Shown: one piece after another, positions 2,638 through 63,560 of the stretch | Layout: each line of letters begins with the position of its first letter | Position numbering within the stretch: position 1 is the stretch's first letter | DNA from: a virus | DNA: 64,000 nucleotides | IMG/VR virus record: IMGVR_UViG_3300022752_000024 | Location: 32,001-96,000 of that record | Reading direction: 5' to 3' (one strand) | Program-made: the position numbers and the translations under genes | Notes under the pieces: generated by a model | The model's input: only the letters and a program-made list of their open reading frames with translations | The model's database searches: none | What the model was told of the DNA's origin: nothing

Positions 2638-3018
2638 TTAATGTAATGTGCTTTCACTTCTATCATCCATTGCTTCAATCATACTCGCAATCTCATCATC
2701 AGTTAGTTTAGCTACTTCTTCTCTCGCTTTATCTATATTGTGTACAGCTTTCAAAGTACCAAGATAGTGATCCACAAAAGTATCAGTAGGTTCAAATTTA
2801 GTTAAAATATCATTATCATAAATCTTACATTCATTTACTTTGATAATTGTTGATGGTGCCCAACTTGCAAGAGTTAGTATTTGTTTCTGGCTACGATGAT
2901 CTTCTTCCATTATGATACAGAAAGCATCTTTAATGTAGCAAGTAGCATAATCATCTTCAACAACAAAACCAATAAGATCCTCACCAGTCTTTAATCGAAC
3001 GATTTTAATTTGTTCCAT
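2638..3018 (-). CDS. Conserved hypothetical protein (Sm-like N-terminus) between uvsW and gp55
   Basis: IKIVRLKTGEDLIG start; overlaps the uvsW stop; usual syntenic position in aquatic T4-like phages. Confidence 0.7.
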   Translation of the reverse strand: MEQIKIVRLKTGEDLIGFVVEDDYATCYIKDAFCIIMEEDHRSQKQILTLASWAPSTIIKVNECKIYDNDILTKFEPTDTFVDHYLGTLKAVHNIDKAREEVAKLTDDEIASMIEAMDDRSESTLH

Positions 3019-4534
3019 CTTTGAGTCCTATCTTATAGAGTTTGTATTTGAAACCCTCATCAGTATATATCTTCACCCGTTCCACAAAGTGCCTTAACGT
3101 AAAATTCATATATTTGTTGATTCTGAGGTCGTCTGCGATGTCATATAGTGTTGCTCTTTCTTTTGTTTCTCCTTTGCGAAGTCCTCTGCCGATTGATTGT
3201 AGATTTCGGATTCTAGACTTACTTGGTGACGCAAAGATAATGTTATGTAAATTCCGTATATTAATACCGGTACTAAAAGTACCGAAAGAAGCAATAACAA
3301 TAGCATCATTTTCTTTCTCCATAATTCTTCTAATGTTTTCTCTATCGTCTGTGTCTGTTCCACCATGAACAAAAAAGACTTTACGATTGCCTATATTTTT
3401 GGCACTGGTAATCTTATCATACAGGACTTGCCCATGTTTGTCAACAAATTGATACAAAATTAATGTATTTGTACCAAGAGAAAGTGCTAGATTTTTAATG
3501 AATCGGTTTCTTGGTTCTGATGATATTAGATACTCTATTTCATCTTTATATTCTTTGCCTTTTAGTTCTTTTGCTTTTTCATCTGGATGTTTAAGAACAA
3601 GACATTTAATTTCAAATTCTGCTAATTGTTTATTGTCAATAAGTTCTTTGGTTGAAGTTACTTTCTCTACTGGTCCAAAAAGACCTTCAAGTACAAGTTT
3701 GTGTGTTTTTGTTCCATCTAATGTACCAGTAAGACCTATACGATATTTTGTATTAATACAAGAAGTCATAATAGTAGTAAGAGATTGTGCCTTAAATAGG
3801 TGAGCTTCATCTCCAATGATATAATCAAACTGCTCAAAGTATTCAGAAGGCATCTTATATAAAGATTGCCAAGTAGATATGATAAGTTTTTTATCAGAAA
3901 CTTTATCTTTACCTTGATATACTCGATGTATGTTCTTTTCTACATCAAATCCATTTTTTGATGAGTAGTCTGCAAAGTCAGTATATAACTGCTCCACTAG
4001 TGATGTAGTCGGGACTATAATTAACCCCTTGTAGCCCTTGTAGTCAAGGAATTGACGTATAAAAAGGTAGATGATAAGAGACTTACCCGAAGCAGTAGGA
4101 GACAGCAATAATGCTCTTTTATGTCGCATAGCATGAGTAAATGCTGCTAACTGATAATCTCTAGTTTCTATAGGTTTACCATGTGCATGTAGATCGAGTT
4201 CATCTACAAACTTTTTAGCTAAGTATAAAGAAAAGTCATCAGTCAAATCTGGTCTTGGATCACCATACTCGACGACATATTGTCTTTCTTCTGCAAAATT
4301 TTCAATGTATGGTAAAAGACCTAAGTATATGCTATTATTTCTTAGATCCATCAATCGAATCTTTCCGTCCCAGATTCGATTTCTAAATGCTGGAGTGAAT
4401 TGATGTCCCGGAACGTAGAACGTAAAGTATTCTGATAGTTCTTTAGCTAAATGTCTTTCACACTCAATAATGGCGTAAACTTCATTAGCTTTTGCAATTG
4501 TTATTTTATCTTGCGCCTTGGATAAATCGCTCAT
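3005..4534 (-). CDS. uvsW: SF2 DNA helicase UvsW
   Basis: RDYQ, SPTASGKS (Walker A), DEAH, GLTGT, QSIGRGLR; follows uvsY. Confidence 0.96.
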   Translation of the reverse strand: MSDLSKAQDKITIAKANEVYAIIECERHLAKELSEYFTFYVPGHQFTPAFRNRIWDGKIRLMDLRNNSIYLGLLPYIENFAEERQYVVEYGDPRPDLTDDFSLYLAKKFVDELDLHAHGKPIETRDYQLAAFTHAMRHKRALLLSPTASGKSLIIYLFIRQFLDYKGYKGLIIVPTTSLVEQLYTDFADYSSKNGFDVEKNIHRVYQGKDKVSDKKLIISTWQSLYKMPSEYFEQFDYIIGDEAHLFKAQSLTTIMTSCINTKYRIGLTGTLDGTKTHKLVLEGLFGPVEKVTSTKELIDNKQLAEFEIKCLVLKHPDEKAKELKGKEYKDEIEYLISSEPRNRFIKNLALSLGTNTLILYQFVDKHGQVLYDKITSAKNIGNRKVFFVHGGTDTDDRENIRRIMEKENDAIVIASFGTFSTGINIRNLHNIIFASPSKSRIRNLQSIGRGLRKGETKERATLYDIADDLRINKYMNFTLRHFVERVKIYTDEGFKYKLYKIGLKDGTN

Positions 4535-23370: not shown

Positions 23371-24150
23371 TTAATTGAGGAAAAACTCAAGAGGAGCCCC
23401 AAAATTATTCTCCATCTCTTTCTCTAATCTCTCTATTTCGTCGGCAGCTTCTTGGTAAATCTTATCACCATTTAATGTTACACCACCAAGCAATTGAACA
23501 CCATCGAATTTCTTTAAGTTGTTTCCCCATGTTCTTTTTATAAGTGCTGTAGCATACTCTTTGAGCCAACGATCTTGCCATACTCCATGGTAAATATCAG
23601 GATTAATTATTGCATAACATTCTGCGATAACAACAGTTCCTGCAGGTGCTTGAGATGATCCCCATGCCCAATCAATAAACAATTTTTTCATATGTCTCTG
23701 ATAGCGAATAGGTACCTCTCCAGTGAACATTAATTCAAGACTACGAAGATGTTGTTGAGTAAGAGTGTAGTTGATGTATGACGCTGATGTGAAGTCGTAA
23801 AGCTCATTTAAACGCAATTGATAACGAAGATCGAACATATTGATTGTTGCCTGAGAATCTTGAATAGGAAAAATTCTAGATACACCAACAATTTCTAATT
23901 GATTATTTGCTGCGTCTTTGGTAACAGACGGGTCCATATTTACATATTTATTATTGACATCCTCTTGCGAAAGTGCTTTAATATAATACACTTTTTGAAG
24001 ACCATCAAAATGATAATCTTGCCAATATTGCAACGCATCGTCGATACGATCTTCCACTTGATCGTCATCCACGTTAATATCAATAACAGGAAACCCTAAT
24101 CTACGAAGGCAGTAGTCTTTAAAATTTTCTCTGGTTTGTATTGTAGCCAT
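23371..24150 (-). CDS. gp13: Neck protein
   Basis: YCLRRLGFPVIDINVDDDQVEDRIDDALQY, WLKEYATALIK, GGVTLNG. Confidence 0.96.
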   Translation of the reverse strand: MATIQTRENFKDYCLRRLGFPVIDINVDDDQVEDRIDDALQYWQDYHFDGLQKVYYIKALSQEDVNNKYVNMDPSVTKDAANNQLEIVGVSRIFPIQDSQATINMFDLRYQLRLNELYDFTSASYINYTLTQQHLRSLELMFTGEVPIRYQRHMKKLFIDWAWGSSQAPAGTVVIAECYAIINPDIYHGVWQDRWLKEYATALIKRTWGNNLKKFDGVQLLGGVTLNGDKIYQEAADEIERLEKEMENNFGAPLEFFLN

Positions 24151-24171
24151 ATAATTCTCCTGATTATACTC

Positions 24172-24179
24172 TATTTATT
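24172..24179 (-). promoter_or_regulatory. Late promoter (AATAAATA) for gp13
   Basis: ATAAATA core upstream of the AGGAG RBS. Confidence 0.65.
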
Positions 24180-25999
24180 TAATCAATAATATAGCCAAAT
24201 GTGTATCCGTTATTACCTAATTGCGCTGCGTTTGGATCATATGTGTATGTAATAACTAATAATCCTGATCCACCACGACCTATATCTCTTGATGAGTTCT
24301 CGAATCTTCCTCCTCCACCTCCTCCACCATATGCACCATTTGCCTGTGCCGCGGTTCCATTGTAACCTGCACTGCCAGGATAACCGGTATTGTTAGCTCC
24401 ACCGCCTCCTCCACCTGGTCCAACAGGTCCAACTATACCAATATATGTATCTGTGTACCAAGAAGCTACATTGTATATCGCTCCATTACCTGACTGTCTT
24501 GCTCCACCTTGTCCTGTAAATCCGCCACCACCTCCTCCACCATTTGTACCATCTCCTGCTATTGCAGCGGAAGTACCTCCAGTACCTCCAGAACCGCCAT
24601 TAGTTCCAGCATTTCCTCCAGCACCACCTACTGTTGCTGTTGCTGCACCTCCACTAGAACCTGCTGAACCTAATGGGCCTGTTGCGGCACCACCACCTCC
24701 GCCTCCAGGAAGAGAGCTTGTTGAAGTGGTATTGTTTGCGCTACTTCCGCTACCACCATCAAACCAATATGGTGCTCCTCCACCACCACCTCCTCTCCTA
24801 ACAGTTGTGGATTTTGTACCAGTAAATCCTAGTCCACCATCACCACCGTTTGCTACTCTTTGTCCTATGGAAGTTTTTATAGAATTAATTCCATATGCTG
24901 TTTTTGCAGTTACAGAAAAAGTACTTTGTGACGCTAATGTAGGTTCACCTGTGGATCCTATAGATGCGTATGTATTTGTTGTTACTGTGTTCCATGTAGC
25001 CGCCGGGGCAACTTGATATGCAATAAATGAACCAGTTGGAAAAGTTGTAGTATTTACTGTATTTGCGTAACCACCTGCTCCACCGCCATGTAAGTTATTG
25101 GTGGATGTACCTGATAACACAATGTTACCTTGACTTCCTCCACCAATAGCATCTATTGTTACTTTTGTAGTACCGGCAGGAAGAATTAAATACTGTTCTG
25201 TTGTTGTTGAAGATTTGAATACCCGGGTTACAGTAGTAGCACTAGATGGCTTTTGTCTGGTGTACGTAATTACAACTAAACCTTGAGAACCAGAGCCACC
25301 GCCTCCTCCATATAGGTCTGCTATGGGTCCACGACCTCCTAGATTACCACCACTACCACCTGACAGACCATAAGAAGTTCCTGTAACGTCCGTCCAAATA
25401 TAATCTACTGTTCCTTTGCTATTGACAGCACCACCATCTCCTCCAGTACTGCTGTTTGCTCTTTTTGTTCCTGGTGTAGTTAAATATGCATAAGTTCCTC
25501 CGTTTGCAGCACCACCTGCACCAGCGACTACTCCTGGTGTAGCATCACCACCATTACCACCTCGTCCATTTGGTCCCGCAGAACCTCCATTGCCACCAAA
25601 ATACGTTGATCCGCTTCCACTAGTTGGATTTCCTGCTACTCCACCATTCCACTTAACATTTCCTATACCATTACTTTCATTATAAACTCCTGAGCAACAT
25701 GCTGATACAGCGCCGTAATTATTAGGTACAGCGTAACAACCTTCTGATGTACTTGTAGGTCCTGTAAATGATACTTTGTTTACCCAAGAGCCGCCAGCAG
25801 CAGCACCAACTGAAATATATAACTTTGATCCTGGCGTTACCGAAAGACTATTTGTTTTGGAATATGCTGAACCGTCACCATCTACGAAAGCGTATCCTGT
25901 TCCACTCAGACACTCGATCTGAATAGAAGTGCAATCTTCAGGAACAATCCAACCATTAACTGAGGATTTAAAGACTACTACGGCTTTAGATGCTGCCAT
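24179..25999 (-). CDS. Glycine-rich fibre-tip/receptor-binding-like protein (two glycine-rich domains)
   Basis: Two repeats of a 'VFKSS...P...IE/D...G...GGGG...GLVVITY' architecture. Confidence 0.65.
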   Translation of the reverse strand: MAASKAVVVFKSSVNGWIVPEDCTSIQIECLSGTGYAFVDGDGSAYSKTNSLSVTPGSKLYISVGAAAGGSWVNKVSFTGPTSTSEGCYAVPNNYGAVSACCSGVYNESNGIGNVKWNGGVAGNPTSGSGSTYFGGNGGSAGPNGRGGNGGDATPGVVAGAGGAANGGTYAYLTTPGTKRANSSTGGDGGAVNSKGTVDYIWTDVTGTSYGLSGGSGGNLGGRGPIADLYGGGGGSGSQGLVVITYTRQKPSSATTVTRVFKSSTTTEQYLILPAGTTKVTIDAIGGGSQGNIVLSGTSTNNLHGGGAGGYANTVNTTTFPTGSFIAYQVAPAATWNTVTTNTYASIGSTGEPTLASQSTFSVTAKTAYGINSIKTSIGQRVANGGDGGLGFTGTKSTTVRRGGGGGGAPYWFDGGSGSSANNTTSTSSLPGGGGGGAATGPLGSAGSSGGAATATVGGAGGNAGTNGGSGGTGGTSAAIAGDGTNGGGGGGGFTGQGGARQSGNGAIYNVASWYTDTYIGIVGPVGPGGGGGGANNTGYPGSAGYNGTAAQANGAYGGGGGGGRFENSSRDIGRGGSGLLVITYTYDPNAAQLGNNGYTFGYIID

Positions 26000-26002
26000 A
26001 TT

Positions 26003-62103: not shown

Positions 62104-62251
62104 ATTCTTTTAGTGTCCTTATTAATTCATCAATATCTTCATCATGCATAAAAATGGTAGAAGAAAATCTAAGACCATCTTCTCTTTCATCATCAATCTT
62201 AGTTAACAAAAACTGTTTACTGCCATATGGTGATATTTTAAATCTTATCAT
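62060..62251 (-). CDS. Hypothetical protein
   Basis: 63-aa ORF coupled to the hydrolase stop (ATGA) and overlapping gp33. Confidence 0.5.
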   Translation of the reverse strand: MIRFKISPYGSKQFLLTKIDDEREDGLRFSSTIFMHDEDIDELIRTLKEYGNERGNKRFQSVD

Positions 62252-62778
62252 GTGTTTGTATAAAATATGTGATTACCAATTTGCATTACAACATGCTTTT
62301 TATTCCAACCAGGACTAACATACTTTGCATGGTAAAACATTGCTTGAGTTCTAGCTAGTTTAACATGAGCGATAGGTTGTGTCAATGCTTTCATTGCAAT
62401 ATATTTGGATTCTTCCCAAAGATAGGCATTCTTTGCCGCAGGAACAGTCGTACATGTCCAACTAAACTGACAGACACTTTTGCCATTATAATTAGTTTTT
62501 TGATATACCACACCACATATGTTTACTGGATATTTACCTGAATTAGTTCGATTGATTGTCACCTGTGCTACTGCAAGCTTTCCTTCAAAAGATTCAGATC
62601 CTGCTTCATAGTAAATATTCTTAGCTAAACATTCCATTTCTTTGCTCATGTGTACTTGAATATCAGTATTGATATCTTGTCTCACTTGATATGGAAACGA
62701 ATAGATAAGAATTACAGTAAAAAATAATATAGTAGCTATAAGCAGGTTGACACTTGTGAATATTTTATTTTTAAGCAT
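62248..62778 (-). CDS. Cell wall hydrolase (SleB/CwlJ, Hydrolase_2 family) with N-terminal membrane anchor
   Basis: CLAKNIYYEAGSE...AVAQVTINR...ICGVVYQ...CQFSW...FYHA...IGNHIFY; hydrophobic N-terminus. Confidence 0.92.
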   Translation of the reverse strand: MLKNKIFTSVNLLIATILFFTVILIYSFPYQVRQDINTDIQVHMSKEMECLAKNIYYEAGSESFEGKLAVAQVTINRTNSGKYPVNICGVVYQKTNYNGKSVCQFSWTCTTVPAAKNAYLWEESKYIAMKALTQPIAHVKLARTQAMFYHAKYVSPGWNKKHVVMQIGNHIFYTNT

Positions 62779-62798: not shown

Positions 62799-62818
62799 GG
62801 AGAGACCGAAGTCTCTCT
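62799..62818 (-). other. cUUCGg RNA hairpin upstream of the hydrolase RBS
   Basis: GAGAGAC-TTCG-GTCTCTC without a U tail. Confidence 0.7.
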
Positions 62819-62892: not shown

Positions 62893-62914
62893 TGTTGTGT
62901 GTAAAAAGTGTGGT

Positions 62915-62948
62915 AGTGAGTTTATTTCTCAGGTACTCACTCGACCTG
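62915..62948 (-). other. H-type RNA pseudoknot
   Basis: S1 CAGGT/ACCTG, L1 CG, S2 AGTGAGT/ACTCACT, L2 0 nt, L3 AGAAATAA. Confidence 0.7.
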
Positions 62949-62954
62949 TGATAT

Positions 62955-62961
62955 TATTTAG
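62955..62961 (-). promoter_or_regulatory. Late promoter box CTAAATA overlapping the pqqA stop
   Basis: CGCTAAATA, 6 nt upstream of the pseudoknot. Confidence 0.5.
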
Positions 62962-63032
62962 CGATTTGCAATATACATGGAAATTTCAAAACCAAAACGC
63001 ATATCTTGTGCTGAAGGTGTAGTCCATTTCAT
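62958..63032 (-). CDS. pqqA: Pyrroloquinoline quinone precursor peptide PqqA (24 aa)
   Basis: Not in ORF track. AAGGAG RBS then MKWTTPSAQDMRFGFEISMYIANR*; WxxP, D(M/L)RxGxE-x-x-x-Y and terminal NR are the PqqA signature. Confidence 0.93.
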   Translation of the reverse strand: MKWTTPSAQDMRFGFEISMYIANR

Positions 63033-63098
63033 ATCATTCTCCTTGATTTGTCATAGCAAAATACTACGACTATAATTATATATGCATAGTGTAACACG

Positions 63099-63128
63099 AA
63101 TGTAATAATTAAAACCATTAAAATGCAA
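63099..63128 (-). promoter_or_regulatory. Candidate sigma70 promoter for pqqA
   Basis: TTGCAT, 18 nt, TACATT; a further TATAAT box lies downstream. Confidence 0.4.
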
Positions 63129-63420
63129 GGTGATTGGGTAATAAGGACACCTTGCGAAACCCCAAGAGAATTAAGCCGCTAGGCGTTCATCTCCAAAATA
63201 TGCATCGTTTGCATTTACTTGTTTTGCTCGGATTACGTCCGTCGCCTTTCGTGTTGCCTTCTCTATTATCTCACCCTGTCGAAACCAGGTCATCCCCATC
63301 AGAAGTACACAATCCCCGCTAGAGCCCTAAGAGGTTTCTTTCATCTAGGACAACTATGCACTTCTGGTGGAGATGGAGGGAATCGAACCCTCGTCCAGAA
63401 TGCCTTCACTTTGAAGGAAT
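63125..63420 (-). ncRNA. ssrA: Circularly permuted (two-piece) tmRNA; tag ANDAYFGDERLAA
   Basis: Acceptor piece (about 63420-63365) ...GACGAGGGTTCGATTCCCTC-CATCTCC-A-CCA precedes the coding piece starting GGGGATG at 63297; stem with G3.U70; tag frame 63212-63171. Outer ends approximate. Confidence 0.92.
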
Positions 63421-63448
63421 TACAACAATTCTAATTCTTGTATTTTAT

Positions 63449-63541
63449 TTATTCATTGTAGCTATACAATAACCAAATACAAATGGATATCAAACAACCA
63501 ATAGCTAACCCGATACAGAATCCAGTTATGTATTGTATCAT
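63449..63541 (-). CDS. Possible 30-aa hydrophobic membrane peptide
   Basis: MIQYITGFCIGLAIGCLISICIWLLYSYNE*; weak RBS; its start overlaps a promoter. Confidence 0.35.
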   Translation of the reverse strand: MIQYITGFCIGLAIGCLISICIWLLYSYNE

Positions 63542-63560
63542 TCTTTATTGATTATGTCAA
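63532..63560 (-). promoter_or_regulatory. Strong sigma70 promoter upstream of tmRNA
   Basis: TTGACA, 17 nt, TACAAT with extended -10 TG; a late box AATAAATA also occurs at 63446-63453. Confidence 0.75.

Follow-up and report, generated by a model that had tools for sequence, protein, structure and literature searches.

Does a gene of 24 codons, carried by a virus assembled from a metagenome, encode PqqA, the peptide substrate of PQQ synthesis, and what might the virus gain from it? In PqqA the glutamate and the tyrosine of the motif ExxxY are cross-linked and become PQQ. The gene lies in a stretch of 64,000 nucleotides, referred to here as the window, which comprises bases 32001-96000 of a 142,881-bp IMG/VR virus record with a CheckV completeness of 86%.

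Identification of the gene as pqqA

A reading of the sequence made without database searches (the sequence-only reading) had proposed a 75-nt open reading frame at 62958-63032 and left its strand unstated. The frame exists, but on the minus strand: the reverse complement of 62958-63032 translates as MKWTTPSAQDMRFGFEISMYIANR*, 24 codons and a stop, while the plus-strand reading is nonsense. The proposal that its product is PqqA agrees with both models available for the family, the peptide scoring 31.9 bits with Pfam PF08042 (curated cut-off 21.1, E 1.3e-7) and 31.8 bits with the NCBIfam equivalog model TIGR02107 (curated cut-off 20). When the entire record was searched for PqqA in six frames only this site was returned, at 29.9 bits, above the cut-off, and with an E-value of 1.6e-7, which places it well beyond chance even given the approximately 1000 small open reading frames of the window.

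The peptide has the length and the leader of its type, 24 residues with W-x-x-P; the tryptophan and proline are kept in all of the host peptides retrieved, though the scan that retrieved them itself required the tryptophan. The core, EISMY, holds the two residues that would be cross-linked, Glu16 and Tyr20. In an alignment of seven sequences, the window gene and six from GenBank phages, W3, T4, P6, A8, M11, R12, F13, G14, F15, E16, M19 and Y20 are invariant, and across 73 unique viral sequences Glu16 and Tyr20 are without change, so that the pair on which the earlier proposal hinged is kept among the phage homologues. Two usual features are absent: the threonine two residues after the glutamate, which is Ser18 here, and an adjacent pqqBCDE operon, which is typical of the first copy in a genome and not required of PqqA. 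Judged by these scores and residues, and by the gene's surroundings described below, the frame is a genuine member of the PqqA family inside a phage genome.

The virus and the surroundings of the gene

The genes around pqqA are on the same, minus, strand. In the order in which that strand is read they are a Cas4-like exonuclease (63564 onward), a promoter, a tmRNA, pqqA, a hairpin, an endolysin-like gene of 176 residues (62248-62778, phrog_938), a frame of 63 residues, and the genes for the late transcription regulator gp33 (phrog_254), the helicase loader gp59 (phrog_269) and the single-stranded DNA-binding protein gp32 (phrog_224), with baseplate and tail genes, also identified by PHROG matches, further along. 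The gp32 is around 60% identical to that of cyanomyophages. Together these genes and this identity point to a T4-like myophage, on sequence a member of the Kyanoviridae-like group, to which Melnitz and the pelagimyophages belong as well. About 15 divergent viral contigs have the gene order exonuclease-(tmRNA)-pqqA-lysin-gp33-gp59-gp32 in common, with amino acid identities to the window ranging from 35 to 84%. Elsewhere in the window, the bases from 24001 to 26000 stand out with a GC content of 0.44, against approximately 0.35 elsewhere, and a strong negative GC skew; this stretch covers a minus-strand frame of 606 residues (24179-25999).

As is asked of an auxiliary metabolic gene, phage genes flank the host-type pqqA on both sides, the nearest being no more than 180 bp away on the downstream side and 530 bp away on the upstream side. 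A frame this short, on a metagenome contig estimated to be 86% complete, could be a chance product of the tmRNA trailer or the result of chimeric assembly with host DNA. The proximity of the phage genes on either side speaks against this. A chimeric host insert, which the sequence-only reading had itself raised against its claim of a phage-encoded gene, is ruled out by the finding of the same synteny in independent assemblies and by the lack of a tmRNA beside any of the bacterial pqqA genes examined. With the genome-wide E-value given above and the purifying selection described below, the conserved synteny effectively refutes an artefact.

Absence of the other PQQ genes

PqqB, PqqC, PqqD and PqqE were searched for in the whole record and none was found. 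The earlier statement that the window has no pqqB-G is therefore correct for pqqB, C, D and E, and extends to the whole record for these four. Nor does the record contain a detectable PQQ-dependent alcohol dehydrogenase. The same is seen in other IMG/VR records of more than 10 kb that bear pqqA, with PqqC in none of 43 and a PQQ dehydrogenase in none of 46. Since the PqqC model detects its target in five out of five Methylophilaceae genomes, the negative results for PqqC are meaningful. On its gene content, then, the phage contributes the substrate alone to the PQQ pathway.

Relatives in other phages and evidence of selection

A tblastn search of GenBank phages gave matches in Melnitz (every isolate, MZ577095-98), P19250A (KX815270), Venkman (MT375522), MEP301 (MW452941), MEP401 and MEP402 (OP830906/7) and MW202481, a freshwater podovirus-like genome. 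Inspection of the reading frame in all of these except MEP401, for which we have the tblastn match, showed pqqA to be intact, with its ATG, the ExxxY core and a motif resembling an RBS, in Melnitz, Venkman, P19250A, MEP301, MEP402 and MW202481, whose genomes range from 35 to 142 kb. Two further matches, labelled 'Acinetobacter phage MD-2021a', were discarded as they are bacterial chromosome contigs with pqqABCDE; one of them (CAKLQF020000010.1) carries fur, ppk, pqqA-B-C-D-E and a dipeptidase gene.

The genes of the cultured Methylophilales phages resemble that of the window in being frames of 23-24 codons with an RBS, a W-T-x-P leader and an E-x3-Y core, and their peptides are 59-71% identical to it. 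They differ in that the small cultured phages have a host-type peptide (…EVTMYVMNK, as opposed to …EISMYIANR in the window) and in that the Melnitz gene adjoins tRNA-Leu and gp5, away from its tmRNA, whereas that of the window is next to the tmRNA. In GenBank an antisense 'hypothetical protein' has been annotated over pqqA both in Melnitz (MelnitzEXVC044M_152, 2967-3062 of the extracted locus L002) and in MW202481 (UOF77531.1, 2067-2195 of locus L006), and in Venkman, P19250A, MEP301 and MEP402 the gene is unannotated.

A pattern scan of IMG/VR showed that at least 592 viral stretches encode a relative of PqqA. The closest to the window among the matches listed, L009, has the same peptide except for a threonine at position 18, and the two genes are separated by six synonymous changes and one non-synonymous change. 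At the nucleotide level the 73 unique viral sequences give a pN/pS of 0.225 and a pS of 0.61, and most of the residues that never change (W, P, A, M, R, F, G, F, E and Y) are coded by two to four synonymous codons. The low ratio, taken with the variation of codons at invariant residues, argues that the frame is translated and selected. These comparisons show that viral pqqA evolves under purifying selection and that it recurs across unrelated phage lineages. A jumbo phage record, L080 (IMGVR_UViG_3300023174_000036, 356,312 bp, rated 96% complete), carries an orphan pqqA as well, MWTKPTAQEMRFGFEITMYVMNR, so the gene is not confined to T4-like and small phages.

The serine at position 18

Threonine was said to be usual where the window has Ser18, and it is indeed present in 71 of the 73 unique viral sequences; among the bacterial peptides examined, only one lacks it. 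Cysteine and asparagine each occur once. The difference between Ser18 and the Thr18 of L009 is a single change of acc to tcc. Scanning with the back-translated pattern located EISMY in three further viral contigs, making four in all among the approximately 600 canonical viral PqqAs listed. The other three genes have 82-85% DNA identity to the window gene and their peptides differ elsewhere too; at such distances the recurrence of EISMY rules out an assembly error. Ser18 is, by these comparisons, a real, rare and scattered conservative variant, with no dedicated lineage.

The unusual residue had prompted the suggestion that the EISMY peptide is a decoy, which would tie up host PqqD and PqqE unproductively and so stop PQQ synthesis. 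Apart from the replacement of the usual threonine, the evidence runs the other way, and we regard an inhibitory role as very unlikely. The otherwise identical peptide of L009 has threonine, the serine is scattered inside a canonical family, a change from threonine to serine is conservative at a site where cysteine and asparagine are also found, and the peptide retains the glutamate and tyrosine and so resembles a substrate. In addition, the peptide of MW202481 is letter for letter the PqqA of low-GC Methylophilaceae genomes.

Hosts

That last peptide is also only one or two residues from those of Venkman and P19250A, and its identity with the host peptide fits a recent capture from the host. 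PqqA was found in all 121 of the Methylophilaceae genomes sampled, at 1-12 copies each, with most of the streamlined 1.3-Mb genomes having three. Many of these copies are orphans, orphan copies being the rule in the family, and pqqA dosage appears to matter in the likely hosts. One PQQ-producing methylotroph has five copies of pqqA (PMC9851590), and for dispersed orphan copies in methylotrophs that paper cites Ge et al (2015). Like the window gene, these copies stand alone, with their own expression signals and away from pqqBCDE. They differ from it in being chromosomal and never beside a tmRNA, whereas the window copy is viral and nearer to the type of Thauera and Burkholderiales.

The peptide type of the window, MKW…DMRFGFEI[ST]MYIANR, is common to many large T4-like contigs and differs from the Methylophilaceae type, which starts with MWT and ends with [CM]N[KR]. 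When bacterial genomes were scanned, the closest peptides were 83% identical to it and included those of Thauera, Limnobacter and other Burkholderiales. A beta two-piece tmRNA, the betaproteobacterial kind that the tmRNA next to the window gene fits best, scores 284 bits in Thauera and is above the cut-off in 1 of 61 Methylophilaceae genomes; searches of Comamonadaceae, Limnobacter, Rhodoferax and Hydrogenophaga genomes found none. The one Methylophilaceae example (L201, G106:C7:19114-22495, 89 bits) is in a genome with an ordinary, weak tmRNA match elsewhere, and the extra tmRNA might belong to a prophage or to a phage contig that was binned with the genome.

The sequence-only reading had favoured a betaproteobacterial or methylotrophic host, and in keeping with this every cultured-phage match infects Methylophilales. 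It would seem likely, from the sequence comparisons, that the host is a betaproteobacterial user of PQQ, and by analogy with Melnitz a host within the Methylophilaceae is plausible.

Expression signals

The strong ribosome-binding site noted earlier is present: a Shine-Dalgarno sequence, AAGGAG, occupies 63044-63039 on the minus strand, six nucleotides before the ATG, and AGGA or AAGGAG motifs of this kind also precede the phage homologues. In the spacer between the tmRNA and pqqA there is a TATAAT box (63075-63080, minus strand) within a block conserved in the alignment of this region, ATATATAAT, and this may be a promoter belonging to pqqA itself. Three relatives (L022, L029 and L034) have TTGACA or TTGAA[CA], an 18-nt spacer and TATAAT at this place. 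In the window the -35 element is poor, and the box was not called in a consensus promoter scan of the window, so pqqA may rely more on read-through from the promoter of the tmRNA. The latter, predicted by a consensus scan, is a sigma-70-type promoter at 63532-63560 (minus strand; TTGACA-17-TACAAT) that matches the consensus at 11 of 12 positions and has a TG before the -10 box. Given such a promoter, pqqA may also be driven by read-through.

Twelve nucleotides past the stop codon of pqqA a candidate hairpin (62912-62946, minus strand) has a 7-bp stem with three outer pairs and a 13-nt loop, and is followed by CUUUUU. Its predicted energy of -10 kcal/mol, with a z-score of -1.67, is weak taken alone, and a strict scan for intrinsic terminators between 62200 and 64000 called nothing. 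Hairpins or classic terminators with z-scores of about -3.2 follow pqqA in L029, L034 and L009, and the element in the window is probably a terminator or a 3' stabiliser. A second hairpin, with a UUCG loop on a strong 7-bp stem (GAGAGAC-UUCG-GUCUCUC, 62800-62817, minus strand), follows pqqA at a distance of around 140 nt and immediately precedes the RBS of the endolysin-like gene; it could act as another terminator or in the processing or stability of RNA.

Linkage to a tmRNA

Directly upstream of pqqA, and on the same strand, is a circularly permuted two-piece tmRNA with the tag ANDAYFGDERLAA (63080-63478). ARAGORN places it at 63080-63457, and the Rfam models beta_tmRNA (63097-63478) and tmRNA_permuted give 148 and 153 bits, respectively. 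The tmRNA was the only match in the Rfam scan of the window; unlike in Melnitz, there was no glutamine riboswitch.

At 19 of 80 viral loci, and at all three of the other EISMY loci, pqqA is preceded on its own strand by a permuted tmRNA. The spacing between the two genes varies from 51 to 4359 nt, with 51-73 nt at eight loci, that of the window among them; the wider gaps, of 0.4-4.4 kb, are filled by small genes. Other viral copies of pqqA lie within tRNA arrays, as in Melnitz. By contrast, a tmRNA was near none of 112 bacterial pqqA loci, for which up to approximately 6 kb of flank was fetched. The linkage is therefore specific to phages, and the idea that ssrA and pqqA were captured together from a host chromosome is ruled out. 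In two loci a near-copy of the 3' hairpin of the tmRNA stands behind pqqA, significant by local alignment (L029, 3283-3345, z 9.3; L034, 3163-3225, z 5.5), which suggests that in these two a duplication of the tail of the tmRNA led to the insertion of the cassette. No significant copy was seen in the window (z -1.3) or in L022, L024, L033, L037 and L038.

The simplest reading of the linkage is a shared hotspot for small, early-expressed genes of host type. A more elaborate one, which we put forward tentatively and think rather doubtful, is that, across a broad clade of T4-like phages from fresh and marine waters, the tmRNA and pqqA form a conserved early cassette for 'host maintenance' that is specific to phages, with pqqA expressed from, or processed out of, a highly transcribed tmRNA precursor. 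Were this the case, ribosome rescue and the supply of PQQ would be coupled in one unit, unlike in any bacterium examined.

The linkage also bears on whether the gene has some use other than as a substrate. The peptide could be a regulator or signal for the expression of host pqq or methanol dehydrogenase genes, or the pqqA mRNA could be coupled to the tmRNA as one processed precursor tied to ribosome rescue. The contrast between the viral and bacterial loci and the position of the best promoter, before the tmRNA, can be cited for this. However, a tmRNA is missing from the neighbourhood of most viral pqqA genes, and in Melnitz the two are at separate places (PMC9004378); in relatives a separate promoter for pqqA stands between it and the tmRNA; the residues conserved are exactly those of a PqqA that serves as substrate; and the shared hotspot explains the linkage more simply. 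We consider such a use improbable.

A hotspot in turn raises the question of whether pqqA is a neutral passenger, a small host gene acquired repeatedly in a plastic tRNA/tmRNA region without benefit to the phage. The gene is found in variable islands, beside tmRNA or tRNA genes, with a changing set of other small host-like genes, its distance from the tmRNA varies widely, as described above, and host genomes supply many dispersed copies for capture. Against this, purifying selection is strong while synonymous sites are saturated, the position of the gene is kept across contigs with core proteins that are only 35-50% identical, and several phage types that are unrelated but share a host group carry pqqA. 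It is thus unlikely that the gene is a mere passenger.

Role of the viral pqqA

The best explanation, in line with the main proposal of the sequence-only reading and in our judgement a probable one, is that the orphan pqqA works for the phage as an auxiliary metabolic gene and provides extra precursor for the host PqqBCDE after host shut-off, a role that we infer from the comparisons above. The scheme presupposes a host that has pqqBCDE and an enzyme that uses PQQ. Host RNA polymerase would transcribe pqqA early, from the sigma-70-type promoter before the tmRNA, the TATAAT box of the spacer, or both. The peptide of 24 residues would be bound by host PqqD and cross-linked by host PqqE, and the product trimmed and completed by one or more host proteases, PqqB and PqqC. 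PqqA is the only part of the pathway to be consumed, at one peptide per PQQ, and it is for this reason that a phage copy would keep PQQ flowing. In this way the gene may sustain PQQ for periplasmic dehydrogenases, such as methanol dehydrogenase of the XoxF or MxaF type, after host transcription has been shut off, and the PQQ so maintained would secure the energy supply for phage production.

A parallel is psbA of cyanophages, which codes for D1. There too the phage encodes the part consumed fastest and leaves the rest to host machinery. The product of psbA is a structural protein subunit, its expression has been measured and its fitness effect modelled, whereas viral pqqA encodes a RiPP substrate.

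There are some observations in the literature that bear on the supply of precursor. In a methylotroph, dispersed copies of pqqA are most highly expressed when PQQ synthesis peaks, and overexpression studies have given only modest gains in PQQ (PMC9851590). Media for OM43 receive added PQQ, at 1 nM in the standard medium (PMC9004378).

Several points count against the explanation we prefer. The slowness of PqqE or PqqC, rather than the supply of PqqA, could limit the output of PQQ. PQQ is stable, and the need for fresh synthesis within one infection is an assumption. In the window itself the -35 element and the terminator are weak. Finally, the peptide is closer in type to those of Thauera and Burkholderiales than to those of Methylophilaceae.

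Relation to earlier work and significance

A lone viral pqqA was published in 2020 and the gene is common in viruses; the window is a solid new example, which leaves the concept unchanged. Coutinho et al (2020, Microbiome, PMC7678222) described a T4-like Lake Baikal phage of 35% GC (population VP_266), with a predicted Methylophilaceae host, that carries PqqA; their rationale was that viral pqqA boosts PQQ for methanol dehydrogenase. Compared by the published description, the VP_266 phages share with the window an orphan pqqA on a T4-like genome of approximately 35% GC. They differ in that methanol dehydrogenase and radical-SAM/SAM-cycle genes are reported for the Baikal phages, whereas the present record is without a PQQ dehydrogenase, and in that the linkage to a tmRNA is undescribed for them (PMC7678222). 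A study of a reservoir from 2026 lists viral pqqA, pqqD and pqqE (PMC13188868). The Melnitz paper describes the phage tmRNA and leaves pqqA unmentioned (PMC9004378). Our search of the literature found no paper linking pqqA with cultured OM43 phages, and no published report on the expression of a viral pqqA or its effect on host metabolism.

The window pqqA is a well-supported case in a little-noticed class of phage helper genes, its contribution being solely a consumed substrate of 24 residues. As cultured systems exist, in Melnitz or Venkman on the OM43 strain H5P1, the idea that the precursor limits PQQ during infection is directly testable. The gene is systematically overlooked by gene callers or displaced by an antisense frame, and for that reason the influence of viruses on the oxidation of methanol and other C1 compounds in lakes and oceans is probably under-counted.
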